Shown here: one piece after another, positions 2,767-40,372 of the stretch
How the letters are laid out: each line of letters starts with the position of its first letter
Position numbering within the stretch: the stretch's first letter is position 1
Assembly: GCA_001776935.1 (NCBI GenBank)
Contig: MFDN01000005.1
Coordinates: 68,893-132,892 of the forward strand
Reading direction: 5' to 3'
Length of the DNA: 64,000 bases
Origin: Candidatus Daviesbacteria bacterium RIFCSPLOWO2_01_FULL_39_23
Lineage (GTDB): Bacteria; Patescibacteriota; Microgenomatia; Daviesbacterales; UBA10151
Made by a program: the position numbers and the translations under genes
The notes under the pieces: generated by a model
Database searches by the model: none
Told to the model about the DNA's origin: nothing
The model's input: only the letters and a program-made list of their open reading frames with translations

Positions 2767-2828
2767 TATTTCTGTCATAATTATCAAACGGATTTATCCA
2801 AAAAGAGGTAGGCGGACCAGGATTGATG

Positions 2829-20064: not shown

Positions 20065-20350
20065 ACAGAAAGATCAACGACTGGCTCAAAACATTGGAGC
20101 GACATACAAGGAAGCTGACGACCAACTGAAACGCTACTACCTCAATTTGTTCTTTGGAGGTGGTGGTTTCTTTGTTAAGGATGGAAAGATTGTCAAAGCG
20201 AAGCTCTCAAACGACGTAAAACCCCTCATCAAAGATGGGTCAGTTCGAGTAAGAATGAATTGGCTCGAACGATGGTATGTTTTCCGAAGGACAGACTGGG
20301 TAAACTACCTGGAATATCCAGAATTTACAACTAAGGAAGTGACTAGGTTT

Positions 20351-21151: not shown

Positions 21152-21158
21152 CATAGAT

Positions 21159-21833: not shown

Positions 21834-21835
21834 AT

Positions 21836-24135: not shown

Positions 24136-24166
24136 TACTGTAAAATTATCATAAAGTTATCATACT
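24136..24166. promoter_or_regulatory. Divergent promoter/operator region between the defence operon and the lexA-like gene
   Basis: 31-bp intergenic segment containing TACTGT and the direct repeat TTATCATA-AAG-TTATCATA; candidate repressor operator. Confidence 0.3.
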
Positions 24167-24766
24167 ATGCCAGTAAAAGTCAAGCCCATTACAGGTAGAC
24201 AAAAAGAGGCGCTCGATTTTATCAATTCCTTTATCCAAGATAATGGATACGCTCCCTCTCTTCGTGAGTTAGCAGCCTTTCTGAAAACCGACAACATTAG
24301 CACGGCTCATTACTTTGTAAAAGAACTTGAAAAGAAGGGTTACCTCAAACGAGATTACTATAAAAACAGAGGGATCACTCCTATTCTTCAAAAACAAACA
24401 GTTCCACTCTTGGGTTATATTGCCGCTGGTGCGCCAATAGAACCAATTGAAGACTCGGAGCCAATACAAGTGCCAACTAACATTAAATTGGCTACAAATC
24501 AGTCTTATTACGCTCTCAAAGTCAAGGGTGATAGCATGATAGATATGGGAATTCTGGACAAAGATATTGTCCTTATTAAGCATCAAATGACAGCAGATGT
24601 CGGCGATGTGGTTGTGGGAATTACAGAAGACGGAGCAACTCTAAAAATTCTAGGAAGAAAAAATGGAAAAACTATCCTTGAACCACGCAACATAAATTAT
24701 AAATCAATAATTCCTAGACAACTTGAGGTTCGAGGAGTTTTTGTAGGTTTAATAAGGGCTGAATAA
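24167..24766 (+). CDS. lexA: LexA-like autocleavable repressor (HTH plus S24 peptidase)
   Basis: 199 aa. N-terminal wHTH (RQKEALDFI...PSLRELAAFL), Ala-Gly cleavage site (IAAGAP), catalytic GDSM and a conserved Lys. Confidence 0.8.
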   Translation: MPVKVKPITGRQKEALDFINSFIQDNGYAPSLRELAAFLKTDNISTAHYFVKELEKKGYLKRDYYKNRGITPILQKQTVPLLGYIAAGAPIEPIEDSEPIQVPTNIKLATNQSYYALKVKGDSMIDMGILDKDIVLIKHQMTADVGDVVVGITEDGATLKILGRKNGKTILEPRNINYKSIIPRQLEVRGVFVGLIRAE

Positions 24767-24802
24767 TAAATTCAAAAATTATAGAATAAGGATAAGATTA
24801 AT

Positions 24803-25588
24803 ATGAATTCAATTAATGACTATCTCAATAAAATAATTTGCGGTGACTGCATTGAAGTCATGCAGAAGATGCCCAATAAAAGCATCGATCTAGCTGTTAC
24901 ATCTCCTCCTTACAATCTTAAAAATTCTACTGGTAATGGTATGAAAGACGGTAGAGGTGGTAAGTGGGCAAACGCAGCTCTCCAGAATGGTTATAGCCAT
25001 CATGATGACTGTATGCCTCACGAAAAATATGTGGCTTGGCAAAGAAAGTGCTTAGAAGAAATGATGAGATTGTTAAAAGACGATGGAGCAATTTTTTACA
25101 ATCACAAATGGCGTGTCCAAAACGGACTGCTTCAAGATAGACAAGACATTGTTTCGGGCTTTCCTGTACGACAAATAATAATTTGGCATCGCAACGGAGG
25201 TATTAATTTTAATAAAGGTTATTTTTTACCCACCTATGAGGTGATTTATCTAATTGCAAAAAAGAACTTCAAGCTAGCACCAAAGGCAAACGCCCTCGGA
25301 GATGTGTGGGACATGGGACAAGACTTAAACAACCCTCACCCCGCACCATTCCCTGTTGAATTGATTGAAAGGATTATCGGATCAACGACTGCCGAAATTG
25401 TTCTAGACCCATTCATGGGTTCAGGTACAACAGCAGTTGCTGCAAAAAATCTCGGCAGAAAGTATATCGGAATTGATGTCTCTCCTGAATATTGCCAGAT
25501 GGCTGAAGAAAGGATCAAAAAGGGACATTTCAATGGCAAGAAACAACAGGATCTTCTTTCTTTGTTTCCCCAAGACTGTTCCGTGTGA
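24803..25588 (+). CDS. DNA methyltransferase, N4/N6 class (PF01555-like), probably m4C
   Basis: 261 aa. DLAVTSPPYNL (SPPY catalytic motif) and DPFMGSGTT AdoMet motif. Confidence 0.85.
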   Translation: MNSINDYLNKIICGDCIEVMQKMPNKSIDLAVTSPPYNLKNSTGNGMKDGRGGKWANAALQNGYSHHDDCMPHEKYVAWQRKCLEEMMRLLKDDGAIFYNHKWRVQNGLLQDRQDIVSGFPVRQIIIWHRNGGINFNKGYFLPTYEVIYLIAKKNFKLAPKANALGDVWDMGQDLNNPHPAPFPVELIERIIGSTTAEIVLDPFMGSGTTAVAAKNLGRKYIGIDVSPEYCQMAEERIKKGHFNGKKQQDLLSLFPQDCSV

Positions 25589-25606
25589 GATAATTAGCTT
25601 AAAGAT

Positions 25607-26398
25607 ATGCAATTATATACAAAAGACGAACTAATTAAGAAACTGAAACAACTTGCCGAAATGGGTTGGATACCAAATGGGAGATTTGGCAACCACGGAG
25701 GAATCGGCAACACTCTTGAGGATTTTTTGGGTATTACAGAAAATAATTTACCAATACCTAATGCTGCCGAGTGGGAGCTAAAAACACAACGGGCAAACAC
25801 ATCGTCGCTAACAACTCTTTTTCATATCGAGCCATCACCAAGAGCCGTAGGTTTTGTTCCAAAAGTATTGTTGCCACTCTATGGGTGGTCGCACCAAGAG
25901 GCAGGAAAACTTTACAAAGATGGCGAAATGAGTTTCAGGCAGACAATCCACGGACTATCCCACAGCGACAGGGGTTTTATCGTTAAAATCGATCGAGCTG
26001 CCAAAAAAGTGCTTATTTCCTTTGATGCAACCAAAGTAGCAGAAAGACATTCTGAATGGCTTCGGGGTGTTGAACAAAAAATGGGGTTAGGGGAACTCAA
26101 TCCACAACCTTACTGGGGATTCGACGATCTAAAACATAAAGCAGGAACTAAACTTCTTAATTGTTTCTATGTGCAAGCGGAAGTAAAAAAGGAAGGTGAA
26201 AAAGAGTTTTACTGGTATAAAAAGGCGCAAATGCTACAAAAGTTCAAATTTGATGGATTACTGGAGGCACTTGAGAAAGGCGCTCTCCTAGTGGATTTTG
26301 ATGCAAGGACAGGTCACAACCATGGCACAAAATTCAGGCTTAGACAAAATCACCTACCTATGCTCTACGAAAAAGTGACCACCGTTGTGAATTCTTAA
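25607..26398 (+). CDS. Type II restriction endonuclease of the MvaI/BcnI family
   Basis: 263 aa. N-terminal ...AAEWELKTQRANTSSLTTLFH and C-terminal LLVDFDARTGHNHGTKFRLRQNH align by eye with conserved BcnI/MvaI blocks (GEFELK...LTLFH; LVMDLCID...GPHLRI). Confidence 0.65.
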   Translation: MQLYTKDELIKKLKQLAEMGWIPNGRFGNHGGIGNTLEDFLGITENNLPIPNAAEWELKTQRANTSSLTTLFHIEPSPRAVGFVPKVLLPLYGWSHQEAGKLYKDGEMSFRQTIHGLSHSDRGFIVKIDRAAKKVLISFDATKVAERHSEWLRGVEQKMGLGELNPQPYWGFDDLKHKAGTKLLNCFYVQAEVKKEGEKEFYWYKKAQMLQKFKFDGLLEALEKGALLVDFDARTGHNHGTKFRLRQNHLPMLYEKVTTVVNS

Positions 26399-26538
26399 CT
26401 CCCTTAAACAGTTTCCCCCATTTCTAACCGCCTGTGTTGACTTGTGTGGGGCTTTCGTGCCTGGGATGGCATAGTTTCACCTCTGTTTGACTTCAGACCC
26501 CTTGTTTGGCATAGTTGCTGGTTACATAAGGTGATAAC

Positions 26539-26824
26539 TATGAATATGAACCAAAATAGACAGTGTCAGCATAATTTAAGGGCAAAAGCCTTTGGCGAAG
26601 CATTAAAAGAAGGCATCAGGGAAGATGTGATGATGCGGTCTTGTTTTCAGTCAGATTTTTCATTAGACAAACATGAGCGTAAATCCAGGCAAAAAATAGA
26701 AAAACTTCTAAACGGAGATCGCAAGAAGGAAATATCAGAGTGGAAGAAAAACAGTAAGACAAGAGCCGAAGCATCCAGACAAGCATTTATAAGAGGGCTG
26801 AAATCGGGAGACAAAACAGAGTAA
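26539..26824 (+). CDS. Hypothetical basic protein
   Basis: Probable ATG at 26539 within ORF 26444-26824; upstream TTGACT and direct repeats TGGCATAGTT x2. Confidence 0.3.
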
Positions 26825-27008
26825 TTTAGTAGCTACAATCTCTAATTAGCGCCCAGTCTACAGTTTGACCACCCTGAGATCTGTTGATCACGCAGCGCAT
26901 AGTTCCCTTAAACCACAGATACTCCAGTGCTAGGAAAAACATAAAGAACAACAGTCCAACTATGAGCATCTTTTTCATAGGTATTTTTACACTACGACAA
27001 TTGCTGTC

Positions 27009-27740
27009 CTAATTTTCAAACAGCGGCACGGTATTCCAATACTGAATCTGTTTGTTGCCATCAACGGTAATGCGGATGGTCGGATAAGAGTAAGGTCTAC
27101 CCTCTAAGCCTTCGGGCAATTTATAACCCTTGTCTTCCCAGAACCACTGATGTAATTCGCCGCCGTATTTTCCAGAATAAATAAACTGTTCTTTGATTTG
27201 ATCAAAGTTCTTTACTCCTCTGACAAGGTAGCCAAAGGCAACGGCTTCAGCTTCCGTCTTGGTAATCTTCGGCATAGTATTTGAACTTGTGTCTGAGCAA
27301 ATAACACCGTTGCTCTTGTAGCCCTCGATTTCACTGGGTTTGAGTCCCGCTATGACAACTGCCACTAAGGAATGGTTTCTGGAATCAACATGATACTCAT
27401 AAACCGAGCATTGTCCATTAAGTAGTTCCTTTTGGTGGTAAATATCTACTTGGCGTGTCCAACCCTCAACTGCCTCCATATTTTCTCCACCCTCCATCTG
27501 GGTGACTTTGCCAACCCTGAAATATACGGGGAAAGGCACATCCGATTTAACAAAGGCTAACTCCAAAGCAGGTTCTGCCATGAAACTGCGAATGGCTGTC
27601 TCATCTTGAGCGGTATTATCAACTTCTTGTTTGGGTAGTAAAGCAGGAACATAGTTGTTTTTCTTTAACCAGACAAAACCAGTCCCCAAGCCAACCAAGA
27701 TAAGTAAGGTAACGATTATTTTTGTCTTCATATTTTTCAC
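27009..27740 (-). CDS. Secreted/membrane-anchored hypothetical protein
   Basis: 243 aa with an N-terminal signal/TM segment. Confidence 0.4.
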   Translation of the reverse strand: MKNMKTKIIVTLLILVGLGTGFVWLKKNNYVPALLPKQEVDNTAQDETAIRSFMAEPALELAFVKSDVPFPVYFRVGKVTQMEGGENMEAVEGWTRQVDIYHQKELLNGQCSVYEYHVDSRNHSLVAVVIAGLKPSEIEGYKSNGVICSDTSSNTMPKITKTEAEAVAFGYLVRGVKNFDQIKEQFIYSGKYGGELHQWFWEDKGYKLPEGLEGRPYSYPTIRITVDGNKQIQYWNTVPLFEN

Positions 27741-27745
27741 CCCCT

Positions 27746-28414
27746 TTACGGATAGGGCGGATAATCAGTCCAGCCCTCTTCTCCTTGAATAAAATAACGA
27801 CTATCGGTGGTATTACAAACCCTGGGATGCCCAGTGCGCCTAGAAGCCTCCTCGCTGGTGACTTGACCACCATCATGCCCGATAGCTTTAAGGCAGTCAT
27901 CATAGTTATTTACCCAGCTATACTTTGCCTGCATTTGCTCTTTCCAGGTTGGAGCAACATCTCCTCCAGGTAAAAGTGCTGGTGTAAAGGGGTTATATTC
28001 CTCACAACCATGATCACAATCCCTGACGCTGGGTATGCCTTCGTTTAGAAGAATTCTGGCTATCTCCCAAGCGCTCATTGACTGGGAAATATCGTAGGCA
28101 GTCTCGGTATCAATGGTGTTATTGCCAACTTTAATCGCTCCAACCTTACCAGGCGTATTGTCCTTGGTGTGTTCAAGAGCGTATTTAAGAGCTTCTTCGT
28201 CTTTGACGAATCCATAATAAGCAAGATTGCCAGTAACCGCTATAAGGGTATTTTGTTTGTCAACTCGGAACTTAACCACAGGAGCAACTTTGCGAGGCGC
28301 TGCAAATTTATTCTGGGACGACTGATACCAATAGAAACCGCCAACAACAAACAGGAGAACAACAAGCAGGAAAGGAATAGTAATCCTAATCTTATTTTTC
28401 ATCTTTATTGTCAT
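27746..28414 (-). CDS. Secreted/membrane-anchored hypothetical protein
   Basis: 222 aa with an N-terminal TM segment; Cys-containing extracytoplasmic domain. Confidence 0.4.
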   Translation of the reverse strand: MTIKMKNKIRITIPFLLVVLLFVVGGFYWYQSSQNKFAAPRKVAPVVKFRVDKQNTLIAVTGNLAYYGFVKDEEALKYALEHTKDNTPGKVGAIKVGNNTIDTETAYDISQSMSAWEIARILLNEGIPSVRDCDHGCEEYNPFTPALLPGGDVAPTWKEQMQAKYSWVNNYDDCLKAIGHDGGQVTSEEASRRTGHPRVCNTTDSRYFIQGEEGWTDYPPYP

Positions 28415-28614
28415 ATTTTGATATAGTTCGGTATGTTAACTTGCTGTCGAGGAGATTGTCAAATCAAACAGAAAGCTCCCCGCCAGCGATAGCCTTTCGA
28501 CTACCCATACCCCTTTCGGGATACAACCTTCGCAGATGCTCTGACTAGGAGCTTTTATCTGCGAAGGTTTTGATGCCATGCCCTTGCGGGTTTAGGCGGT
28601 TAAATTGTTAAATT

Positions 28615-28806
28615 TTATGGCTTATCTCTGCCGTGCATAAGTTTCAAAATATCTTCTTTTTTATAACGACGGTCTTTGCGTTGACCAAAGCGGACAGACT
28701 GTAAAATGCCTTTTTTATCCCATTGACGAAGAGTATTAGGATGAACACTAAGCAATTTGCTTGCCGCTGATAATGTTAAAAGCTGTGGAACGGTTTGGTC
28801 AGTCAT
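28615..28806 (-). CDS. Excisionase/MerR-type HTH DNA-binding protein
   Basis: 63 aa. LLTLSAASKLLSVHPNTLRQWDKKGIL matches the excisionase-family HTH pattern. Confidence 0.55.
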   Translation of the reverse strand: MTDQTVPQLLTLSAASKLLSVHPNTLRQWDKKGILQSVRFGQRKDRRYKKEDILKLMHGRDKP

Positions 28807-28827
28807 AATTGATAGCGGACTCGCTAT

Positions 28828-29799
28828 TTGTTAACATTAGACTACAATAAGCAACAGTTTATTGCAACTATGACGATGAAAATTGACGAGGAATACAAAA
28901 CCTACACAGCTTTTGTTACGAAACTCGCTGTTATAAAGCAACTCTTGCTTAATCAGGAAGAACCTTCTTATATCTTGGAACGCTACACTCAGAAACACTT
29001 ACTAAGTGAGGAGCAGTTTCAAGGGATACAATCTTTGGTTAACAAAGACAAGAACGAGTTAATAAGACTCTTGGACAAAAGTATAAAAGATTTCATGGCT
29101 GGTAGACATCTCGATAAAATTACAAATCCAGAGCTAATAAAATACTCCTATAAATACCAAAAAGATAACTTTATCAACAAAATCGCAGATTATATAAAAC
29201 AATATGGACTAAAAATACCACTCCATTTCGAGGAGGACGCTTCTCTCTTCGGAGAGAACACAACCAGGATAACCTTCATAGAAACTTTAATAGCCTTAGA
29301 GTCGGAAGGATTTATCTCGATTGTTAGTATTAGAGAAGGGACTTCAAAACCACACGAAATCATTACCGCAGACGCTGGCGTTTGGTCTTTGACCAAAGAT
29401 GAAAACAGAAGTGGTTTTACCGTTTACCCAGTTCCTATTGCTACTATACAGCTTACAAGAAAGTTAATTAGCCTTATCGAGCCCCGACTCTCATATACCC
29501 CTCACAAACTGTCCTTCAAAGGCAAAGTAATTTTTATTCCAGAAGGCGACCAAGATACACTCTGTAGGGTAATTTTGCGAAATAAAAATGCAATGAAAAG
29601 AGAGTGGTCATGGGATGAAGTGCTAGAAAAATCAGGAGAAAGAAATATCGACACAAATATGTGGCGCAGGGTTTATAACGCAGGGCGTGAGATCAATAAA
29701 AAAGTGGCAATAGAAACAACAATTAAGGATCTGCTCGATGTTAGAAAGCAGACAATCTCAGTAAACACAAAATATCTGCCATTTCCCCCGAACAAGTAG
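28828..29799 (+). CDS. Hypothetical protein
   Basis: 323-aa ORF in the island; no motif recognised. Confidence 0.35.
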   Translation: MLTLDYNKQQFIATMTMKIDEEYKTYTAFVTKLAVIKQLLLNQEEPSYILERYTQKHLLSEEQFQGIQSLVNKDKNELIRLLDKSIKDFMAGRHLDKITNPELIKYSYKYQKDNFINKIADYIKQYGLKIPLHFEEDASLFGENTTRITFIETLIALESEGFISIVSIREGTSKPHEIITADAGVWSLTKDENRSGFTVYPVPIATIQLTRKLISLIEPRLSYTPHKLSFKGKVIFIPEGDQDTLCRVILRNKNAMKREWSWDEVLEKSGERNIDTNMWRRVYNAGREINKKVAIETTIKDLLDVRKQTISVNTKYLPFPPNK

Positions 29800-29865
29800 T
29801 TAGATAACTTTATATAACCCCTTAGGAGCTAGGCTTATGTTAATAGCCTAGCTTTTTTTATAACT

Positions 29866-30117
29866 ATGAACCAGCAATTAAACGAGAATTACTATCAGAC
29901 CAGCGATCTATCTCTCGCCACAACCCTCTCTTTATTTGCGCCGATAGAAGAAATTGATCGTTCTACTAATCCCCGCAAAGCACTGTTTATCTTCCGCAAA
30001 ACTCCTGAACTGGAGAAGCTAATTGACCAGTATTTCCGAAACGAAATCAAAATCTCGCCTCAGACCTATTTTAATCAGTTGCGTGTCGTGAAGGCACGGC
30101 TCTATGCCAACGAATAA
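29866..30117 (+). CDS. Hypothetical small protein
   Basis: 83-aa ORF. Confidence 0.3.
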   Translation: MNQQLNENYYQTSDLSLATTLSLFAPIEEIDRSTNPRKALFIFRKTPELEKLIDQYFRNEIKISPQTYFNQLRVVKARLYANE

Positions 30118-30264
30118 CTATGATAGATAAAAATTTACTATTGGAACTAAAACAAATCTTAAAAGAAGACTTTGATCTGGAATTAAGCCTCCAGGAAGTT
30201 ACAGAGATAGGCACAACCCTACTGGCTTTTACCGAGACTTTATTAAAAATCGAGTCAACAAACA

Positions 30265-30528
30265 GTGGAGGAAACAGTTATGACGCCCATAGATAAATTT
30301 GTAAGCATTCTAAAACCGCTTTTATTAGCAGGGTGCGGTATTGAATTAACCACAGAAGAAGCGTCGATTGTGGCAAATACGCTGACAGATTTCTTTGAGG
30401 CATTGGCATTAATCGAACACAAAAAGGATTGTCCTAAGAAAGAAAAGCTTGAAGAATACTTGAGACAAAAATGGGGCGGTAAAAGAAAAATTAATATGAC
30501 CATAAATAACCATGATGATCTCAATTAA
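30265..30528 (+). CDS. Hypothetical small protein
   Basis: 87-aa ORF. Confidence 0.3.
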   Translation: MEETVMTPIDKFVSILKPLLLAGCGIELTTEEASIVANTLTDFFEALALIEHKKDCPKKEKLEEYLRQKWGGKRKINMTINNHDDLN

Positions 30529-30868
30529 CGATATAACTATCAAAATTAAACTCTTGAAATCAGAAACCATGCTAGCCCAGGCAACCGTAATACTTTTTGG
30601 TGTCTGGAAAGAACATGGCTGGAAGGTGTTGAGATCTGATCGACCACATCCAAAACATCAAGATTCCCTATGGTTTCAAGCGCCAAGCTATCGACTAGGT
30701 AGTGGTTGGCACGAAATCGTCTTTATCGATGATCTTGATCTATACGAGGCTGTGATAGAGAAGATTTACAACGCCTATTGCCTTGCCAAAAGCAAACAAC
30801 CCGATCAGGGAGAAAAAGAGGAAGAAATCAATCCAGAGGATGTCGATTTAGAAAGCATTAACTTATGA
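30512..30868 (+). CDS. Hypothetical protein
   Basis: 118-aa ORF. Confidence 0.3.
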   Translation: MMISINDITIKIKLLKSETMLAQATVILFGVWKEHGWKVLRSDRPHPKHQDSLWFQAPSYRLGSGWHEIVFIDDLDLYEAVIEKIYNAYCLAKSKQPDQGEKEEEINPEDVDLESINL

Positions 30869-30973
30869 AAAGACATAGTAACTATATAGGGACTTATAAA
30901 GGGAATTTTATAGTAACAATTTTTCCCTTTAAGAGGAAATGTATTTATATAAGTTACTATAGCTAATTTAACT

Positions 30974-31546
30974 ATGAATATCGTTACATCAAAGATACCA
31001 GGAGAACGAGCAAAACAATACGCCGCTTGGCTTCTTTATTGCGAAGTAGGCAGTTTAGAAAAAACGCTCAGGATGTGGGAGCGAATTTCAGCTCAAGATG
31101 ATACCGAAATGATACCGTTTTTTGGGGTTTTCCTGGGTAAACCCGCTGGTTTGGCAACACTCAAACGCTGGTCAGTCAAATATCGCTGGCAGGAACGAAC
31201 TGAGTTGAAAAACACAGAAGATCTGGAAGACATGAGGTTCAAGTTTAAGAGGATTAAGCAAACAAGAGCATATAAAATTGCCATTTTATTAGACAGGGTT
31301 CTTGATAGATTGGGTCGGCAGTTGGATCAAGGCATGTATGTCAGCACAAGAGATCTTTACACGCTTTGGAAGATGCACCGAGTTGAAGAGGGACTGAGTA
31401 TCGGAAACTACCAAGTTATCACTTACCAAGAACCGCCAGCAGAACCAAAAACCCCAGAAGAAATAGAGTTAGACAAGAAGATACAGGAAATAGTCAGTAG
31501 GTATCACAAGAACAACGACAAGGAGGAGCAACCTACCATTACTTGA
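30974..31546 (+). CDS. Hypothetical protein
   Basis: 190-aa ORF upstream of the serine recombinase. Confidence 0.35.
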   Translation: MNIVTSKIPGERAKQYAAWLLYCEVGSLEKTLRMWERISAQDDTEMIPFFGVFLGKPAGLATLKRWSVKYRWQERTELKNTEDLEDMRFKFKRIKQTRAYKIAILLDRVLDRLGRQLDQGMYVSTRDLYTLWKMHRVEEGLSIGNYQVITYQEPPAEPKTPEEIELDKKIQEIVSRYHKNNDKEEQPTIT

Positions 31547-31592
31547 TATTGCCAAACAATTTGTTTATGTTCTGTGTTACATCAAAATTACT

Positions 31593-33275
31593 ATGAAAAC
31601 TGCCATATTCTGCCGAGTAAGCAGTAAAGAACAAGAAGAAACAGGCTACTCCCTGCCAGCTCAGGAGAAGTTCTTGAGAGAGTATGCTGACAAACAGGGC
31701 TTGGAAGTCGCCAAAGTCTTCGCCGTCTCCGAGTCCGCAGCAGGCAAGGTTCAGAGAAAAATCTTCATCGAGATGGTCGCCTATGTCCGCAAGCATACCA
31801 TTCCCACGATTATCGTGGAAACAACTGACCGTTTAACCAGGAATTTCTCTGATGTCCCCACCATTGACTTATGGATTACCGAGAACGAAGAACACCAAGT
31901 CCACCTGGCAAAAGAAGGCTGTATCCTCCACAACTCCTCCCGCTCTCACGAATGGTTTATGTGGCGGGTCAAAGTGGCCACCGCCGAGTATTACGTCCGT
32001 CTTCTTTCAGAGAATGTGAAGAAGGGGCAGAAAGAAAAACTAGCCCAAGGCTGGATCCCCACCAAACCACCACTTGGGTACAAAACAGTGGGTGAAACCG
32101 GCCACAAAATCCATGTCGTTGATGAAGGTGCTTCTAAGCTAGTAATCAAGATGTTTGAGCTCTACGCCTCCGGCGATTATTCCATCAAAAAGCTTGCAAC
32201 CACTATGTATGAAGAAGGCATGCGCTCACCGCAGGGCAACAGACTGGCGATCAGCAGGACCCACTCCCTGCTGCGTGATCCTTTCTATATGGGTAAAATA
32301 AGGTGGAACAATGAGATCAGCGAAGGCAAACATCAACCGTTAATCAGTAAAGAACTATTTGATAAGGTCCAAAATATGCTTGTGAGCAAAACCACCCCTA
32401 AATATATGAAGCACGACTACCTCTTCAAAGGATTAATCCGCTGTGCAGGCTGTGACGGACTGATTACCTGGGAACTACATCGGGGTCATCACTACGGACA
32501 TTGCAACCACTATCACGACTGTACCCAAGAAACGTGGGTCAAGGAACCGGAAACCGAAGAACAACTCTTAGACGGTTTTGATAGCCTCCGCATCAAAAAC
32601 CAGCGGGTAACTGAGTGGCTCAAGAAAGCTCTCAAAGAAAGCCACCAGGACGAAGTTCAATACCACAACAGCACCGTCGGCGATCTGGAAACCCGCTATG
32701 AAGCTGTCAGCAGAAGAATGGACAAGTTGTACGATGACAAGCTCGATGAGAAAATTACTCAGGAGTTTTATAACCGCAAGTTCAAGCAATACTCCAATGA
32801 AAAAGACGAACTAACCGAAACCATCAAACGCCACTCCATCGCCAGCACTGGCTACATAAACTTTGGTATTAATCTCTATGATCTCTCGCAACGAGCCAAA
32901 AACATCTACCTAACCGCCAAAAATAAAGATATGTTGGACGAACAACGAGCACTGATTAGGCTGGTCTTCGCCAAGTTAACGCTCAATGAAGGCAAACTTA
33001 GCTGGGAATACTCCAAGGCATTTAAAATGCTTTCAGAAGCAGTAGCCCAAACCAATTGTTCTAAAGTGGAAAATTTAGAGGATTTTGAAAAAGGAACTTT
33101 CGAACATGCAGAATTGCCCGACAATTCAACACAAAAGGACGCTTTATTGCCTCTGCGTCCCATCTGGCTCCCCCGCGTGGATTCGAACCACGAACCTCGA
33201 TCTTACAGAATTCCACTTGTTACCAAATGGTCTGGACTATCTAATCATCCCAAGATGCGGGAGCCGGGTATATAG
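31593..33275 (+). CDS. Large serine recombinase (resolvase catalytic domain, recombinase domain, zinc ribbon)
   Basis: 560 aa. N-terminal AIFCRVSSKEQ (catalytic Ser); zinc ribbon CAGCDGL...HCNHYHDC. The last ~37 codons run antisense over the tRNA-Asn 3' exon and intron. Confidence 0.85.
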   Translation: MKTAIFCRVSSKEQEETGYSLPAQEKFLREYADKQGLEVAKVFAVSESAAGKVQRKIFIEMVAYVRKHTIPTIIVETTDRLTRNFSDVPTIDLWITENEEHQVHLAKEGCILHNSSRSHEWFMWRVKVATAEYYVRLLSENVKKGQKEKLAQGWIPTKPPLGYKTVGETGHKIHVVDEGASKLVIKMFELYASGDYSIKKLATTMYEEGMRSPQGNRLAISRTHSLLRDPFYMGKIRWNNEISEGKHQPLISKELFDKVQNMLVSKTTPKYMKHDYLFKGLIRCAGCDGLITWELHRGHHYGHCNHYHDCTQETWVKEPETEEQLLDGFDSLRIKNQRVTEWLKKALKESHQDEVQYHNSTVGDLETRYEAVSRRMDKLYDDKLDEKITQEFYNRKFKQYSNEKDELTETIKRHSIASTGYINFGINLYDLSQRAKNIYLTAKNKDMLDEQRALIRLVFAKLTLNEGKLSWEYSKAFKMLSEAVAQTNCSKVENLEDFEKGTFEHAELPDNSTQKDALLPLRPIWLPRVDSNHEPRSYRIPLVTKWSGLSNHPKMREPGI

Positions 33276-33433
33276 TCTCTACACATTTACCCCGCCACAG
33301 CGGGGATTTAGCTCGGGATTACCCTTCGATTACTCTCAGGGCTTCCCCGAATTAGCCCGATTTTCATCTCGGCATTACTGCCGGGAGCTGCCTATTTTGA
33401 CAGGATCTCGCTCTACCGTTGAGCTACAGGGGA
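33165..33433 (-). tRNA. tRNA-Asn (GUU) interrupted by a group I intron; exons 33433-33400 and 33205-33165
   Basis: 5' exon UCCCCUGUAGCUCAACGGUAGAGCGAGAUCCUGU resembles the E. coli tRNA-Asn 5' half. 3' exon UAAGAUCGAGGUUCGUGGUUCGAAUCCACGCGGGGGAGCCA. Joined anticodon loop CUGUUAA. Acceptor pairs with a G-U wobble; CCA encoded. Confidence 0.7.
33206..33399 (-). ncRNA. Group I intron (~194 nt) in the tRNA-Asn anticodon loop, between nt 35 and 36
   Basis: 5' exon ends in U and the intron ends in G (omega-G). The core contains GUGUAGAGACUAUAUACCCGG and UAGAUAGUCCAGACC, which resemble conserved group I P7/P3 and S-element segments recalled from the Azoarcus tRNA-Ile intron (GUGUAGAGACUAGACGG, AGAUAGUCC). 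Confidence 0.6.
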
Positions 33434-33436
33434 TTA

Positions 33437-34132
33437 TTAATGTACGTGAGCTATTCTATCATCCATCAAAGCTGAAATCCACCCCATTATTCGTCGCTGC
33501 TTATCAGAAACACTAAAATTAATCGAAAAAATCCCATATTTATGAATATTTTTTCTAACTTTTCTGCTGTTTATTTTATTTTCTGCAATATATGTTTTGA
33601 AGAATTGGTTCTCCGGAATCCCAGTTATCTTTGTCCAGTATTTCTTTGCTCTATCCACATCTAATCCTTCATGTATCCAAATAGCTCCTCTAAATCTAGA
33701 CAAAGGAATCTCACAAAATTCTTTAAACCAGCTCATCATAAACTTAATTATCTTAGGGTCACTATTGGCCAAGCCAGCCCGACCATCTCCCTTATTCCCT
33801 TCTCCTGCATATAATGTTATTCCTGCTATAAATCTATCCCTTTTGCTTAGATCTCCAAGTTCTTTTTTTGCTTCTTCATAAATAGTTTGTGTTCTAAGAA
33901 TCCTAGCACGTCTTTTATTATCTGCTGCTACAATCGAACCCTTCTTTTGGCCGAACATCTTGTTCTCAAGAAGCTTCTTTTTTTGGTCTTGTGTAAGCTT
34001 AATATCCCGACACCATCTGCTAATAGTATCCTTTGACACATGAATTTGTTGCATTATTTTACCGTAAGATAAACCCTTTTTGCGTAGCGCCTGAGCTTTA
34101 ATCTTCTCTTCTAATTTTCCAACATATCCCAT
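33437..34132 (-). CDS. HTH-domain protein of unknown function; paralog of 2908-3603; abuts the 5' end of tRNA-Asn
   Basis: 231 aa. N-terminal HTH (LSYGKIMQQIHVSKDTISRWCRD). Shares FIAGITLYAGEGNKG, SDPKIIKF and IPENQFFK motifs with its paralog. Confidence 0.55.
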   Translation of the reverse strand: MGYVGKLEEKIKAQALRKKGLSYGKIMQQIHVSKDTISRWCRDIKLTQDQKKKLLENKMFGQKKGSIVAADNKRRARILRTQTIYEEAKKELGDLSKRDRFIAGITLYAGEGNKGDGRAGLANSDPKIIKFMMSWFKEFCEIPLSRFRGAIWIHEGLDVDRAKKYWTKITGIPENQFFKTYIAENKINSRKVRKNIHKYGIFSINFSVSDKQRRIMGWISALMDDRIAHVH

Positions 34133-34245
34133 ACTTACATTATCAAATTAGGACTAAGTATTGTCAATATATTACTATGGTTGGTAATACGATTTGAATT
34201 CTCCAATTAAAAGTAGCACACTAAAGATTAAGGAGGTGAGAAATT

Positions 34246-34512
34246 TTGAAACTGAATCCTAACAAAACAGCTTTGACTGTCGGAACCTTCGTTGGGCTGT
34301 GGCATTTTGTCTGGGGGCTACTGGTAACTTTTGGATTTGCTCAAATCCTTTTGGACTTTATTTATGGTATTCATTTTATGAATAATCCATTTACGATCCA
34401 GCCATTTGATCTGATTAAATGGATTACTCTAGTCGTGGTAACAACCATAGTCGGTTATATTTTTGGTTATATTTTTACCATAATTTGGAATAAAGTTCAG
34501 AAACAGAAATAG
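34246..34512 (+). CDS. Small membrane protein (2-3 TM)
   Basis: 88-aa hydrophobic ORF. Confidence 0.3.
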   Translation: MKLNPNKTALTVGTFVGLWHFVWGLLVTFGFAQILLDFIYGIHFMNNPFTIQPFDLIKWITLVVVTTIVGYIFGYIFTIIWNKVQKQK

Positions 34513-34568
34513 TAGAGATTGCCGCGTCGGGTCGAAGAATCGACCCTCCTCGCAATGACGGGATGGGG

Positions 34569-35660
34569 TTATTCCAGGTAGTCCCGCAGCTTTTTGGCTC
34601 TGGTGGGGTGCTTTAATTTTCTGATGGCTTTGGCTTCAATTTGTCTGATTCTTTCCCTGGTTACCCCAAATTCTTTGCCTACTTCCTCCAAAGTCCGCTG
34701 CTTTCCATCTTCCAAACCAAACCTAAGCTGCAGCACCCTTTTTTCCCGGGGGGAAAGCGAATCCAAAACCTCATCAAGGTGTATTTTTAAAAGCTCTCTT
34801 GTTGCCTGCTCATCCGGCTGTAAACCCTGATCTGCGATAAAATCCCCTAAATGAGAATCTTCCTCATCCCCGACAGGAGTTTCCAGGGAGGTTGGTTCCT
34901 GTGACACTTTTATAATTTCCCGAGCTTTAGTTTCATCAATTCCTAATGCTTTGGCCACTTCTTCCGGGGTCGGCTCCCTGCCCAGTTCCTGCATCAATTT
35001 TCTTTGAGTCCTGTTAAAGCGATTTATAGTTTCAACCATATGAACAGGAATGCGGATTGTCCTGGCCTGATCTGCAATTGCCCGGGTGATTGCCTGCCTG
35101 ATCCACCAGGTGGCATAAGTTGAGAACTTATATCCCCTTCTCCAGTCATACTTATCAACCGCCCTCATCAAACCAATATTCCCCTCTTCAATTAAATCAA
35201 GTAAACTCATTCCGCGCCCGACATATTTTTTGGCAATGGAAACAACCAGCCTTAAATTAGCGCTGATTAATTTATCACGGGCAGCTTTAACATTTTTCTC
35301 TGCTTTTTTTGCAAGCTCTATTTCATCCGCTGCTGTTAAAAGCGGAATTTTGCCGATATCCCGCAAATACTGCCGGACAGGATCTGTAACAGAACCTGCC
35401 TCCAAAGTAGATAAAACTTCCAGTTCTTTTTCAAGCTCTGTTGTGGATTTAGTCTCAACTTCAAGCTCCTCTGCCGTAGTTTCAAAAACATCAATGTTTT
35501 CATCGGTCAGTTGGAGAAAAAATGCATCCAGGGCTTCTATGGTTTCTTCAGGTTTTGGGAAAATCTGCAGGATTTCTTCCTGCGTTACAAAGCCTCTGCT
35601 TTTACCCAGCTTAAGCAGTTTTTTGATATCTAAAGATGTTTGTTTTTTTTGTTTAGCCAT
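34569..35660 (-). CDS. rpoD: RNA polymerase sigma-70 factor (primary sigma)
   Basis: 363 aa. Regions 2-4 including [30 protein letters not shown] and the region-4 [23 protein letters not shown]. Confidence 0.9.
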
Positions 35661-37589: not shown

Positions 37590-37674
37590 GGAGGGATCGC
37601 ATAGTGGCCTAGTGCGCGGGCTTGGAAAGCTCGTATACCGCAAGGTATCGTGGGTTCAAATCCCACTCCCTCCG
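37590..37674 (+). tRNA. tRNA-Ser (GGA)
   Basis: Acceptor GGAGGGA/UCCCUCC; anticodon loop UUGGAAA; long variable arm; T-loop UUCAAAU. Confidence 0.85.
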
Positions 37675-37701
37675 CAGGTTGTCATAGTGTATAATAATTT
37701 T

Positions 37702-37959
37702 ATGTTTAATAACTGGCAGATGCCGAATTTAGGAGCAGGAATATATTTGCTGATTTTGTGGGAAATTTTTTGGAAGGGAGTGGGTCTTTGGAAATCTGCC
37801 AAAAAAGGCGACCTGATCTGGTTTTTGGCAATATTTTTGATTAATTTTTTTGGCATTATTCCCCTCTTTTACCTTTGGAAAACCAAACAATTAGACGGAG
37901 TTATTAAAGATTTTCAAAATTTCTTTAAATCGCTGTTTTTAAGGTTTCAAAAGAAGTAA
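37702..37959 (+). CDS. Small membrane protein (2 TM)
   Basis: Downstream part of ORF 37579-37959, beginning at MFNNWQ after the tRNA; hydrophobic. Confidence 0.3.
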   Translation: MFNNWQMPNLGAGIYLLILWEIFWKGVGLWKSAKKGDLIWFLAIFLINFFGIIPLFYLWKTKQLDGVIKDFQNFFKSLFLRFQKK

Positions 37960-38580
37960 ATATTCCCTGTTCCCTGCTCCACCCAGGATTGGGGAATCAA
38001 TACAATTTACAATGTACAATTTACAATGTACAATTTTTTCCAGCACCTGATTTTTTACTCTTTCTGCAATTTCAGAAGGCAAAACACCTTTTATGAGATC
38101 TCTTTTATCAGCTTCGTAATGAGGTTTGAGTAAAGCAATAATCAAACCATCCGGTTTAAGGAAATTCTTAACAATAGGTAAAATCAGCTCCAGTTTGGTC
38201 CAGCCGGCATCAATTGTGATTAAGTCAACTCCATCCACCTCGGAGGAGTCATGGCTTCCGCTTCGCTCCAGCCTGCCACCATCCGAGGTGTTTTCAAAGT
38301 CACCTTCCAGGTGGGCTTTGACTCCTGGAAGGTGTGTCAGGCGAAGAATATTTGTCCGCTCCATTACTACTACTCTGGGATCATTGCGCAGTTTCCAGGC
38401 CAGTTCCCCATACGCAGTATCCAAAGCATAAACTTTTCTTGCTCCATTTTGCAGTAAACAATCTACAAATCCGCCTGTTGAGGAACCTACGTCGAGGACG
38501 ACGTAATCTTCAATCCTCAATTTCCAATTTTCAATAGCGGATTGCAGTTTTATTCCGCCCCGGGAAACAAATTGATTCAT
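37939..38580 (-). CDS. TlyA-like rRNA 2'-O-methyltransferase (FtsJ fold, no S4 domain)
   Basis: SRGGIKLQSAIENW...VLDVGSSTGGFVDCLLQNGARKVYALDTAYGELAWKLRNDPRV matches the conserved TlyA/FtsJ motifs. Confidence 0.7.
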   Translation of the reverse strand: MNQFVSRGGIKLQSAIENWKLRIEDYVVLDVGSSTGGFVDCLLQNGARKVYALDTAYGELAWKLRNDPRVVVMERTNILRLTHLPGVKAHLEGDFENTSDGGRLERSGSHDSSEVDGVDLITIDAGWTKLELILPIVKNFLKPDGLIIALLKPHYEADKRDLIKGVLPSEIAERVKNQVLEKIVHCKLYIVNCIDSPILGGAGNREYLLLLKP

Positions 38581-38987
38581 ATCTCCTTCCATCTGTCTAC
38601 TGCTTTTTTTAGCAGTTCCTTATCCTGATTAAAAGTCAACTTCTTCATGGCTTCCTCCTGCTCATACCAGCCGATATCACTAACTTCCCAGTCATGGTCT
38701 TTAATATCTCCTGAGACATATTTCATTAAAAAATAAGTCACTACTTTAAAAATCTTCACATTATTAAAAGTATAGACATATTTGGAATAACCTACCTTCC
38801 CAGCAATCTCAGCCAACACTCCACCCTCTTCCCGGACTTCTCTTAAGGCAGACTCTTCCGTTGTTTGCTCCGGATGATCAAGCAAGCCTTTAGGAAAGCT
38901 CCAATGATGATTTTGGGAATGCTGAGTCAGAAGCACCTGCCCCTTATCATTAAAAACAATTCCTCCTGCTGAAAATTCTTGTTTCAC
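38577..38987 (-). CDS. NUDIX hydrolase
   Basis: 136 aa. Nudix box GLLDHPEQTTEESALREVREEGGV. Confidence 0.8.
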   Translation of the reverse strand: MKQEFSAGGIVFNDKGQVLLTQHSQNHHWSFPKGLLDHPEQTTEESALREVREEGGVLAEIAGKVGYSKYVYTFNNVKIFKVVTYFLMKYVSGDIKDHDWEVSDIGWYEQEEAMKKLTFNQDKELLKKAVDRWKEI

Positions 38988-39088
38988 GTTTTTAATTCTA
39001 TCTTTTTTAATTGTGCCCTCGGCGGGAATTGAATCCTTCGATCCTTCGACATACTCAGGACTCAGGACCTTCGGCCCACATCAATCAG

Positions 39089-39162
39089 TATGCCCGAGAG
39101 GACTTGAACCTCCAACCTCAAGATCCGGAATCTTGTGCTCTATCCAATTGAGCCACGGGCAC
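39089..39162 (-). tRNA. tRNA-Arg (CCG)
   Basis: Acceptor GUGCCCG/CGGGCAU; anticodon stem CAAGA/UCUUG with loop UUCCGGA; T-arm GGAGG-UUCAAGU-CCUCU. Confidence 0.75.
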
Positions 39163-39170
39163 ATATTTTT

Positions 39171-39255
39171 TGGCGGAGGGTGCAGGAGTCGAACCTGCTA
39201 GGGCTTTCACCCGATGGTTTTCGAAACCATTACCTTACCGTTCGGCCAACCCTCC
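39171..39255 (-). tRNA. tRNA-Ser (CGA)
   Basis: Acceptor GGAGGGU; anticodon loop UUCGAAA; long variable arm; CCA encoded. Confidence 0.8.
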
Positions 39256-39406
39256 GAATGCGGGTCGCATTCGTAAATGCGACACCTCCGAAAACTTGTC
39301 TTTTGGAAATTTATGCCAAGTTTTCTTCGGCGCGCCCGGCGGGATCTTTACTTCGTAAAGCATAGTGCACTTCGTTTGCACTATGAACGAACCCACGAGC
39401 GCTTTG

Positions 39407-39478
39407 CGCCCCTGGCGGGAATCGAACCCACATTACGAGATCCGCAATCTCGAGGTTTATCCGTTAGCCTACAGGGAC
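39407..39478 (-). tRNA. tRNA, anticodon GCG (Arg) by manual fold
   Basis: Acceptor GUCCCUG/CAGGGGC; anticodon stem CGAGA/UCUCG with loop UUGCGGA; T-arm GUGGG-UUCGAUU-CCCGC. D-stem has one mismatch. Confidence 0.5.
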
Positions 39479-39536
39479 AACATGGGTATTTTAACAGAAA
39501 TCCAGTCTGAAAGCTGAAGCCTGTGACAACTGAAAA

Positions 39537-40148
39537 CTATCTATGGGTATTTTCCAGGGGGAAGTGTTTTTGTAAACCTTCTGACCATTTTTCCATCCAG
39601 CTTTTATACGGCACCTCAACATACGGCAAAAATTTGGCTACAGTTTTTTTAACTTTTTCTTCATCATGCTCTTCCAGTACCAACATAAGCTGAGCCGGAA
39701 ACCTCAGGCGCGTTTGAATATGCAAAATATTTGAACCATCTTTTTTCTTAAACCAAAAAGCATCCAGGTAATGCCAAAGGTAAAAATCTTCCCCGATAGT
39801 AATACCTTGTGTTGAAATCCTGTAAGTAACTTTATGAGGCGGCACAAAAGCCAAAACATAGGCCACAAAAGCTAAGGATAAAAGTGTGGCGATAAGTAAA
39901 AATTCCTTAGCCAAAAGCAATATTAAAACCAGCAAAATCACAATTATCGCCAAAGTGGTGTAGTAAGACCGGTCTTTTTTTCTAAAAGGACGGGATGGCG
40001 CTTCCCACGAGAGTAACGTTTCAATCTCCTCTGTCTCCATCATCTTAGGAGTAAAAAATTCATGGCCAAGATTTTCCTCAGGAGGATTTTTTGGATGCTC
40101 CTTTTTAGGAGGATTCTGCTGGTGTTTTTCAGGATTATCCTTGGGCAT
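39537..40148 (-). CDS. Hypothetical membrane protein (2 TM, charged termini)
   Basis: 203-aa ORF. Confidence 0.4.
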   Translation of the reverse strand: MPKDNPEKHQQNPPKKEHPKNPPEENLGHEFFTPKMMETEEIETLLSWEAPSRPFRKKDRSYYTTLAIIVILLVLILLLAKEFLLIATLLSLAFVAYVLAFVPPHKVTYRISTQGITIGEDFYLWHYLDAFWFKKKDGSNILHIQTRLRFPAQLMLVLEEHDEEKVKKTVAKFLPYVEVPYKSWMEKWSEGLQKHFPLENTHR

Positions 40149-40198
40149 GTTGATTTTAGTTTAACTTTAAATTCCTAAACTGTAAAGACCGATTGCTG

Positions 40199-40283
40199 CG
40201 GAGGCGGCAGGATTCGAACCTGCGAGCCCTTTCGAGCCAATGGTTTTCAAGACCATCTCCATAAACCGCTCGGACACGCCTCC
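40199..40283 (-). tRNA. tRNA-Ser (UGA)
   Basis: Acceptor GGAGGCG; anticodon loop CUUGAAA; long variable arm; T-loop UUCGAAU. Confidence 0.8.
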
Positions 40284-40288
40284 TTAGG

Positions 40289-40372
40289 CGGAGGGTACAG
40301 GATTCGAACCTGTGTGACATTTCTGCCAACGGTTTAGCGAACCGTCTCCTTAAACCACTCGGACAACCCTCC
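40289..40372 (-). tRNA. tRNA-Ser (GCU)
   Basis: Acceptor GGAGGGU; anticodon stem ACGGU/ACCGU with loop UCGCUAA; long variable arm. Confidence 0.8.

Follow-up and report, generated by a model that had tools for sequence, protein, structure and literature searches.

A gene for tRNA-Asn that is divided into two parts by an intervening stretch of 194 nt was identified on the reverse strand of the window, the whole 64-kb stretch of DNA that was analysed. An ORF of 231 aa lies upstream of the gene, and a recombinase gene reaches it from the opposite side. The features of the locus are given below in window coordinates. Positions within the intron are converted to window coordinates as 33400 - n.

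33433-33400, (-) strand: tRNA-Asn 5' exon, 34 nt, UCCCCUGUAGCUCAACGGUAGAGCGAGAUCCUGU, tRNA positions 1-35.
33399-33206, (-) strand: group I intron, 194 nt, without an ORF, starting with CAAAAUAGGCAGC and ending with GGAAUUCUG.
33205-33165, (-) strand: tRNA-Asn 3' exon, 41 nt, UAAGAUCG...GGGGGAGCCA, tRNA positions 36-76.
33388..33403, (-) strand: P1 hairpin with the 5' splice site, in which exon CUGU (33403-33400) and intron C1 (33399) pair with the internal guide GGCAG (33392-33388).
33234..33279, (-) strand: P7 region enclosing the P3 3' strand and P8, from the Rfam alignment.
33206..33233, (-) strand: P9.0, P9 and the terminal (omega) G194, which lies at 33206 and sets the 3' splice site.
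33437..34132, (-) strand: 231-aa ORF, context of the intron, ending 4 nt before the tRNA.
34167-34139, (-) strand: promoter-like site TTGACA-17-GATAAT, upstream of the 231-aa ORF.
31593-33275, (+) strand: phage-type large serine recombinase gene, converging on the tRNA and overlapping it.

The 5' exon ends in C32, U33, G34 and U35, the last of which immediately precedes the 5' splice site. The 3' exon contains U36, A37 and A38, the 3' strand of the anticodon stem, the variable loop, the T arm, the 3' strand of the acceptor stem, G73 and an encoded CCA (33167-33165, (-) strand). The coordinates and sequences that the initial annotation had given for the two halves and for the 194-nt intervening stretch are exact to the base. 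When the exons were joined in silico, ARAGORN recognized a 75-nt tRNA-Asn(GTT) with the anticodon GUU, a 7-bp acceptor stem, the loop CUGUUAA, G73 and the encoded CCA, which bears out the canonical loop, acceptor stem and discriminator G claimed earlier. Only the junction CUGU/intron/UAA combines a loop of 7 nt with U at -1 and G as the last intron nucleotide. The joined tRNA has the same length as four intron-less tRNA-Asn genes of relatives and is colinear with them; 51-55 of 72 positions are identical, the differences lie mostly in stems, and U1-A72 and G73 agree with those genes. The top position of the anticodon stem is mismatched (A27·G43). A check with ARAGORN, proposed in the initial annotation, succeeded in part: the joined exons were called correctly, but the default program misses the split gene, and the mode with intron detection miscalls the locus as a tRNA-Gln(CUG) interrupted at 32/33. 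A second tRNA-Asn was not found within the 64-kb window by ARAGORN or the Rfam search.

The intervening stretch was identified as a group I intron by the Rfam model RF00028 (Intron_gpI), a search that the initial annotation had also suggested. The match at 33409-33213 on the (-) strand covers the full model length (1-253) and scores 55.1 bits, only 5 bits more than the gathering score of 50, with E = 2.9e-11 over the whole window. Together with the covarying helices described below, this match supports the earlier claim of a group I intron. The helices were placed manually on the basis of the Rfam alignment and then checked by covariation. In intron numbering, P1 is formed by exon C32-U35 plus C1 paired with G8-G12, with the wobble pair U35·G9 marking the cleavage site. 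The remaining helices, all on the (-) strand, are as follows.

P2: intron 17-21/26-30, with L2 = GUAA.
P3: intron 40-44/132-136, from the Rfam alignment.
P4: intron 50-55/82-87, from the Rfam alignment.
P5/P5a: intron 59-62/75-78 and 65-66/71-72, with the loop GUAA.
P6/P6a: intron 88-89/116-117 and 95-100/105-110, from the Rfam alignment.
P7: intron 121,123-127/161-166 (G121 and G123-A127 with U161-C166), with A122 bulged.
P8: intron 138-141/149-152, from the Rfam alignment.
P9.0: intron 167-169/191-193 (A167 G168 A169 / U191 C192 U193).
P9: intron 170-176/181-187, with L9 = GUAA.

P3 and P7 form the group I pseudoknot. The pair G123-C165 beside the A122 bulge is the putative guanosine-binding pair, an assignment made because of the established group I architecture. 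An unconstrained minimum free energy fold recovers P2, P4-P5a and P9.0-P9 (z = -2.5). P10 is weak in the window copy, with two of three possible pairs.

Related loci were gathered with a pattern fixing P7 and T-arm bases, and they provide independent covariation support for the intron helices. Exhaustive enumeration of splice choices followed by ARAGORN gave many spurious alternatives per locus and was useful only once GUU at 35/36 was required. [quoted passage not shown] The split is not a chance match, because these 91 loci share it and the anticodon stem covaries across the intron. The interruption of tRNA-Asn(GUU) between nucleotides 35 and 36, as first annotated, is correct. The 91 genes add draft genomes to a published survey that covered complete genomes.

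The helices were evaluated in an alignment of 66 sequences, in which one locus (L011), a tRNA-Asp 35/36 gene mis-parsed as Asn, stays as one noisy row (alignment A1). In this alignment 87.8% of cells are paired, compared with 69.1% in shuffles, and the covariation score is 0.489 compared with 0.155 in shuffles; none of 500 shuffles scored as high, and slid-partner controls gave 0.07-0.17. Compensatory changes support the anticodon stem (pairs 28-42 to 31-39, across the intron), P1, P2, P3, P4, P5, P9.0 and P9. The P1 pairs with the exon are C-G in 66/66 sequences, U-A in 65/66, G-C in 66/66 and U·G in 66/66, and the fifth pair, C1-G8, covaries (CG 35, AU 8, GC 8). The exon U that had been noted ahead of the 5' splice site is U35 of this invariant wobble, and the terminal G that had been noted is G194, a G being present at the intron end in 91/91 parsed loci. 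All three pairs of P9.0, which covaries directly upstream of the terminal G, and all seven pairs of P9 change on both sides, and P9 is 95.6% paired. P7 is invariant in the alignment, which is uninformative because the pattern used to select the loci fixes its bases. MAFFT aligned P8 and P6a poorly (44-64% paired). GNRA tetraloops occur at L2 and L9 in most aligned sequences, and the compact intron form, without extra hairpins between P7 and P3, is present in 55/66 introns. P10 is variable, with 3/3 possible pairs in only 18/66 sequences; in view of this weak and variable pairing, it is not claimed as a part of the mechanism. Metagenome contigs at 99.4-99.9% identity hold the same split gene.

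The sequence anatomy, the covariance-model match, the helix covariation and the homology to proven self-splicers are demonstrated at this locus. Catalysis by the window copy is predicted from its sequence, and splicing would proceed along the established group I route. A single precursor would be transcribed, possibly together with the upstream 231-aa ORF, and the intron would fold into its P3-P9 core. The guide GGCAG would pair with exon C32-U35 and intron C1 to give P1, in which the U35·G9 wobble would mark the 5' splice site. The first attack, after U35, would come from an external guanosine that occupies P7. G194, placed by P9.0, would next move into that binding site, and U35, through its free 3'-OH, would attack after G194, so that U35 is ligated to U36 and the loop CUGUUAA is restored. 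Because P10 is weak, the exons are probably held mainly by the anticodon stem of the tRNA.

The genes rpoD and dnaG adjoin the split tRNA locus. The named relatives of a neighbouring protein belong to Ca. Daviesbacteria and Roizmanbacteria, and the order dnaG-rpoD-ORF-tRNA agrees with Daviesbacteria MAGs. Judging from these relatives and this synteny, the host is a member of the Patescibacteria (Microgenomates-like). An origin from a huge phage had been considered because the window contains seven tRNAs, a tmRNA and a LOOT RNA. This origin was ruled out by the adjoining rpoD and dnaG, by the Patescibacteria relatives of the neighbours and by the absence of any blastn match to the locus among 50,697 phage records.

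The locus is almost certainly a Patescibacteria (Microgenomates-like) gene for tRNA-Asn(GUU) that is split at U35/U36 by a self-splicing group I intron of compact, ORF-less form. It is very improbable that the intron is a decayed, non-catalytic copy and the split gene a pseudogene, with an intact tRNA-Asn elsewhere in the genome serving in its place. Such decay would fit the modest Rfam score and the large serine recombinase gene, which abuts the tRNA and marks the region as disturbed, and the view is limited to 64 kb of the genome. The P3-P9 core pairings, however, are all intact in the window copy, which also keeps P9.0, the G at the intron end and the U·G wobble of P1; it shares 71% identity with an intron proven to self-splice, and the near-identical metagenome contigs carry the same gene. 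The reading of the tRNA halves as attachment-site fragments on either side of an integrated element, which the initial annotation had itself named as a refutation, draws on the same phage-type recombinase gene, but it is already refuted by the RF00028 match, the joined cloverleaf and the covariation. What separates the halves is a group I ribozyme of 194 nt that codes for no protein; the halves are complementary cloverleaf parts that covary across the intron and not duplicates; and the recombinase lies outside the tRNA gene, on its 3' side. A repeat of the tRNA 3' end was not found in the window, and the region 20000-34200 contains no meaningful direct repeats.

A shifted splice junction, by which the gene would encode Thr(UGU) with the intron at 33/34 or Gln(CUG) with the intron at 32/33, is most unlikely. 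The Gln reading is the one returned by ARAGORN in intron mode at the window locus, and homologous genes are often named Thr(UGU) 33/34 by ARAGORN and tFind (Table 1, PMC13011429). With a 33/34 junction, however, the intron would end in C (...AAUUC/UGUAAG) and would have no terminal G, and a G at the intron 3' end is also missing from the Gln model, whose anticodon arm is poor. The invariant P1 wobble sits at U35, P9.0 covaries just ahead of G194, the tRNA body (U1-A72, G73) agrees with intron-less tRNA-Asn genes, and the 35/36 junction has been sequenced in homologues (PMC13011429).

The 231-aa ORF contains an N-terminal HTH and one putative LAGLIDADG-fold domain with the motif LYAGEGNKGDG. 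A Pfam search of the ORF gave no match to a LAGLIDADG family and only sub-threshold HTH hits; a profile search of PDB sequences reached I-DmoI with a weak E value of 0.17. The HTH and LAGLIDADG-fold gene is conserved directly upstream of tRNA-Asn in most relatives. Among 72 homologues from a metagenome sample collected protein-first, 62 lie directly 5' of an intron-containing tRNA-Asn; others lie beside intron-less tRNA-Asn (4), tRNA-Asp(GUC) (2) and tRNA-Lys(CUU) (1). A strict dependence between the ORF and the intron was ruled out, since intact ORFs also precede intron-less tRNA-Asn, tRNA-Asp and tRNA-Lys genes, and the intact ORF beside intron-less tRNA-Asn genes argues against simple self-targeting. 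As a tentative suggestion, with the odds against it, the 231-aa gene and the intron-bearing tRNA may form a functional module, in which the protein would be a free-standing homing endonuclease for position 35/36 of tRNA genes with a GUN anticodon, or a domesticated splicing helper or tRNA regulator. Collaborative homing has been described for phage introns, and the homing-endonuclease version may be likened to it.

The practical value of the locus lies in the behaviour of standard tRNA finders, which miss or misname the split gene, so that the genome would seem to be without tRNA-Asn and would be scored as less complete. A homologous intron was also observed in an archaeal tRNA-Asn, on a contig that carries MCM and TBP. 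An archaeal tRNA-Asn intron of this kind would challenge the view of archaeal tRNA introns as bulge-helix-bulge introns only. These two by-products, the tRNA-linked LAGLIDADG-fold gene and the archaeal tRNA-Asn intron, could outweigh the finding itself.

The tRNA-Ile(CAU) intron of Azoarcus is a group IC3 intron of about 200 nt that is ORF-less and lies in the anticodon loop. Its P2 and P9 are capped by GNRA loops, it contains the motif GUAGAGACUA, and its junction is after U36 (36/37). The initial annotation had likened the window intron to this intron. The likeness holds only for the general architecture, as both are small ORF-less anticodon-loop introns with P2/P9 GNRA loops and the GUAGAGACUA motif, but the tRNA is another one and the junction is 36/37 compared with 35/36 in the window. 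The homologues of the window intron were classed as IA, not IC, by Nakagawa et al. (PMC13011429). Another bacterial self-splicing group I intron of an anticodon loop (1993, cited in PMC3984707) is inserted at 34/35, belongs to subgroup IC and comes from a different phylum.

The tRNA-Asn 35/36 introns of ultra-small Patescibacteria were already described and shown to splice in 2025-2026, and the window intron is a further example. The novelty of the 35/36 position in a bacterial tRNA-Asn, which the initial annotation had implied, does not hold, as group I introns at this position of tRNA-Asn(GUU) in Patescibacteria were reported by Nakagawa, Amikura, Omae and Suzuki (mSystems 2026, PMC13011429). 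According to that paper, the site had already surfaced in the tFind work of Williams (bioRxiv 10.1101/2020.01.27.920355). Precise in vitro self-splicing was reported there for the tRNA-Asn 35/36 intron of GCA_016700035.1 and the tRNA-Asp 35/36 intron of GCA_001029755.1, exon ligation was blocked in a terminal G-to-C mutant, and 25 of 28 introns at 35/36 were assigned to structural subgroup IA. The window gene carries its insertion at 35/36 of a tRNA with a GUN anticodon, as in this class. An HMM of the relatives of the window intron scores the published sequences at 107-109 bits, and the related locus L006 (CP006914.1, WWE3) is the GCA_000503835.1 entry of PMC13011429. The window genome is not among 15 tRNA-Asn entries from the tables of that paper.

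The validated Asn intron of GCA_016700035.1 shares with the window intron the tRNA, the junction CUGU/...G/UAA, the P1 guide GCAG and the host phylum, and the core motifs AGAGACUA and GAUAGUCC are common to the window intron and the tRNA-Asn 35/36 introns of PMC13011429. The identity to the GCA_016700035.1 intron is only 58%. This intron and other Asn introns of Table S3 contain an extra hairpin region of about 30 nt between P7 and the P3 3' strand, which is consistent with their IA classification, whereas the window intron has only UAUA there. The tRNA-Asp(GUC) 35/36 intron of GCA_001029755.1 (Microgenomatia, 196 nt) is 71% identical to the window intron, colinear over the whole intron, and shares its compact architecture without the P7/P3 insert. 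[quoted passage not shown] The two differ in the host tRNA, which is Asp in GCA_001029755.1, and in the 3' exon, which starts with CAC there and with UAA in the window. The window intron adds one Microgenomates example to this experimentally characterised class.

The minus-strand tRNA-Asn(GUU) gene at 33433-33165 is split by a group I intron between nucleotides 35 and 36. When the minus strand of 33000-33600 was read and cut at the exon boundaries proposed in the initial annotation, its coordinates and sequence description were reproduced exactly. The gene and its flanking features are as follows.

33433-33400, minus strand: tRNA-Asn 5' exon, 34 nt, ending in CCUGU
33399-33206, minus strand: group I intron, exactly 194 nt, starting with CAAAAUAGGCAGC and ending in UUCUG
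33205-33165, minus strand: tRNA-Asn 3' exon, 41 nt, starting with UAAGAUCG and ending in GGGGGAG-CCA
33437-34132, minus strand: 231-aa open reading frame, downstream of a strong promoter-like site and stopping 4 nt before the tRNA
31593-33275, plus strand: phage-type large serine recombinase (Resolvase, Recombinase and Zn-ribbon domains), converging on the tRNA

The joined exons were identified by ARAGORN as a canonical 75-nt tRNA-Asn(GTT), as had been proposed. The interrupted gene is not reported by default ARAGORN; with intron detection, a check suggested in the initial annotation, the program does call an intron-containing gene, but as an implausible tRNA-Gln(CUG) with the intron at 32/33. 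The other suggested check, the Rfam group I model RF00028, matches 33409-33213 (minus strand) over the full model length with 55.1 bits, above the gathering score of 50 (E = 2.9e-11 across the window), and is the sole Rfam family matching the split tRNA locus. No open reading frame was found inside the 194-nt intron. A single pair of cuts, CUGU|C...G|UAA between 35 and 36, combines an exon-final U, an intron-final G and a 7-nt anticodon loop. The alternative often picked by annotation tools for such genes, a tRNA-Thr(UGU) with a junction at 33/34, would leave the intron ending in C, and is contradicted by the ARAGORN result on the joined exons and by covariation among related introns.

Helices were assigned from the Rfam alignment and inspection. 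All lie on the minus strand, with intron numbering n = 33400 minus the window coordinate.

P1: exon C32-U35 and intron C1 with G8-G12; U35·G9 wobble
P2: GUAA loop
P3: crosses P7
P4, P5 and P5a: GUAA loop on P5a
P6 and P6a
P7: A122 bulged beside the G123-C165 pair
P8
P9.0: 3 bp immediately 5' of the terminal G
P9: GUAA loop

The crossing of P3 and P7 forms the group I pseudoknot. P2, P4-P5a and P9.0-P9 were independently recovered by an unconstrained energy fold (z = -2.5 versus shuffles). The mechanism is most likely ordinary guanosine-initiated group I self-splicing. P10 is weak, with two of three possible pairs in the window intron and all three in just 18/66 aligned introns. Exon alignment probably depends on the anticodon stem, a role established in the pre-tRNA of Anabaena (Zaug et al. 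1993, cited in PMC3984707).

Relatives were collected by a GTDB scan (one genome per species) with the pattern AGAGACTA-N(28-58)-GATAGTCC-N(20-46)-GTTCRAWTC, which returned at least 119 loci; further loci retrieved via the neighbouring protein bring the set to 124. Among the matches listed, 91/124 are tRNA-Asn(GUU) genes split at 35/36, all 91 with ...CTGT 5' of the intron and G|TAA 3' of it, and intron lengths range from 173 to 571 nt. The other loci contain related introns in different tRNAs, e.g., CAU-anticodon tRNAs and Arg(CCU) at 36/37. From the matches listed, 66 distinct introns of up to 235 nt with short exon flanks were aligned with MAFFT (one row, L011, is actually a tRNA-Asp gene), and the window structure was counted on this alignment. 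Paired cells amounted to 87.8% versus 69.1% in shuffles, and the covariation score was 0.489 versus 0.155, a value reached by 0/500 shuffles. Sliding the partners by 1-3 columns lowered the score to 0.07-0.17, although taking the structure from the window sequence itself alone gives an advantage over these slid controls. Two-sided changes occur at all anticodon-stem pairs from 28-42 to 31-39, so the halves on either side of the intron evolve together as a single tRNA. Virtually all sequences have CUGU/GCAG as P1, with U·G in 66/66, and the fifth P1 pair covaries. Compensatory changes were found in P2 (5/5 pairs), P3 (4/5), P9.0 (3/3) and P9 (7/7), and GNRA tetraloops cap L2 and L9 in most sequences. 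The invariance of P7 and the T arm is uninformative because both were fixed by the search pattern, and MAFFT aligns P8 and P6a poorly.

The junction, the RF00028 match and the covariation show that the initial structural interpretation, a group I intron at 35/36 of tRNA-Asn, was correct. That the two halves might instead be att-site fragments, which the initial annotation had named as a refutation, is contradicted by the RF00028 match and by the covariation of the halves; a repeat search found no att-like repeat. A decayed intron or pseudogene is likewise contradicted, both by the set of helices assigned in the window intron and by its 71% identity to the self-splicing Asp intron of GCA_001029755.1.

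Genes for RpoD (363 aa) and DnaG (601 aa) lie upstream of the tRNA in the same orientation. For the protein encoded between rpoD and the tRNA, 463 homologues are detectable; where a source is named, it is Ca. Daviesbacteria, Roizmanbacteria or another member of the Patescibacteria. The order dnaG-rpoD-ORF-tRNA is repeated in Daviesbacteria MAGs, and two ENA metagenome contigs match 33055-35090 at 99.4-99.9% identity. The window therefore belongs to a Patescibacteria chromosome; a phage origin was rejected on the neighbouring genes, the homologues and the gene order. Downstream of the tRNA, gene content varies among relatives, so an integrated element beside tRNA-Asn is probable on that side. 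Homologues of the recombinase align to residues 1-485 alone, and its residues 525-560 (the last 36 codons) are antisense to the tRNA 3' exon and intron end. The near-identical metagenome contigs L127 and L128 stop ~100 nt past the tRNA.

Other RNAs were also detected in the window. A LOOT RNA motif (RF03000, 78.7 bits; 28488-28598, minus strand) is located at the far edge of the plus-strand block of open reading frames that ends with the recombinase. A 420-nt tmRNA (43411-43830, minus strand, Rfam 105.6 bits), unreported by ARAGORN, carries a ~60-nt insertion relative to the model after the resume codon. Four tRNA-Ser and two tRNA-Arg genes cluster at 37590-40372, and 2828-2899 (minus strand) encodes a tRNA-Ile with a UAU anticodon. 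Such a tRNA-Ile is uncommon in bacteria, where AUA is usually decoded by a modified CAU tRNA.

The 231-aa protein has close homologues at 60-87% identity and is not recognized by Pfam or Foldseek. Its AlphaFold2 model (pLDDT 83.5) has a helical HTH region at the N terminus and an alpha/beta domain at the C terminus, and the family profile places an invariant LYAGEGxK on the second LAGLIDADG motif of I-DmoI (E = 0.17). In the intron-selected loci, every tblastn match (26 loci) directly precedes the split tRNA in the same orientation. A protein-first metagenome sample gave 79 loci, of which 72 extend 150 nt or more past the gene; in these 72 the gene is immediately followed by an intron-containing tRNA-Asn (62), an intron-less tRNA-Asn (4), tRNA-Asp(GUC) (2) or tRNA-Lys(CUU) (1), with nothing detected in the other 3. 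Since a tRNA-Asn is detected in the normal way in the majority of complete Microgenomatia genomes (tRNA counts in the supplementary table of Nakagawa et al., mSystems 2026, PMC13011429), this enrichment for the intron is suggestive. A functional link between the gene, which PMC13011429 does not mention, and the intron-bearing tRNA is possible but unproven. In phage "collaborative homing", free-standing endonucleases target the intron insertion site (PMC3984707). A domesticated role would fit at least equally well with the high degree of conservation and with the loci that have an intron-less tRNA-Asn, where the open reading frame is undamaged and retains its acidic motif residue. In one Daviesbacteria MAG (L001:4697-4827), the 5' end of tRNA-Asn is partially duplicated (TTCCTCGATAGCTCCAACGG...); the copy, followed by a short GC-rich hairpin-like sequence, is situated between this gene and the full split tRNA-Asn.

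A homologous 511-nt intron splits tRNA-Asn(GUU) at 35/36 in L020:64-647 (minus strand; RF00028 97.2 bits), on the 8,951-nt contig CAYIBB010000024.1 labelled Ca. Woesearchaeota. This tRNA has G1-C72, versus U1-A72 in all bacterial copies, and within the intron a 113-aa open reading frame without a Pfam match encodes an HNH-like cysteine/histidine motif. The contig also encodes an MCM with an archaeal winged helix, TBP, aIF1A and aIF2-beta. Mis-binning is not an explanation; a chimeric assembly is a possible one. A "Pacearchaeota" tRNA match was earlier dismissed as mis-binned (Williams 2020, bioRxiv 10.1101/2020.01.27.920355). The published archaeal group I introns all lie in rRNA genes (39/39; Nawrocki et al. 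2018), so L020 may be a case of such an intron within a tRNA gene of an archaeon.

The initial annotation knew of no description of position 35/36, but the site is already published for tRNA-Asn, first in Williams' tFind preprint of 2020 according to PMC13011429. In 95 complete Patescibacteria genomes, 15 tRNA-Asn(GUU) and three tRNA-Asp(GUC) genes carry group I introns at 35/36 and are often mis-called as Thr(UGU) or Ala(UGC) at 33/34 by ARAGORN and tFind (PMC13011429; intron sequences in its Table S3). In vitro self-splicing with sequenced ligated exons was demonstrated for one Asn intron (GCA_016700035.1) and one Asp intron (GCA_001029755.1), and a terminal G-to-C mutation blocks exon ligation in both (PMC13011429). 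The WWE3 entry of that survey (GCA_000503835.1) is our locus L006 (CP006914.1), and the Asn sequences of the survey score 107-109 bits against an HMM of our alignment. The window intron shares 58% identity with the validated Asn intron and 71% with the 196-nt validated Asp intron from Microgenomatia, with which it is colinear throughout. In the intron of GCA_016700035.1 and the other published Asn introns inspected, P7 and the P3 3' strand are separated by an additional hairpin region of ~30 nt, in keeping with the IA classification of PMC13011429; the window intron and the Asp intron have a 4-nt joiner at this place (UAUA in the window intron, within 33264-33279, minus strand). This compact form occurs in 55/66 aligned introns among the matches listed, and its presence in the window Asn and Microgenomatia Asp introns suggests that the intron has moved between GUN-anticodon tRNAs within a host clade. 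One guide sequence suits every such tRNA because P1 requires exon CUGU alone, consistent with the Asn, Asp and Tyr hosts reported in PMC13011429. The window locus is a further, compact-form member of the family described and experimentally validated in 2025-2026.
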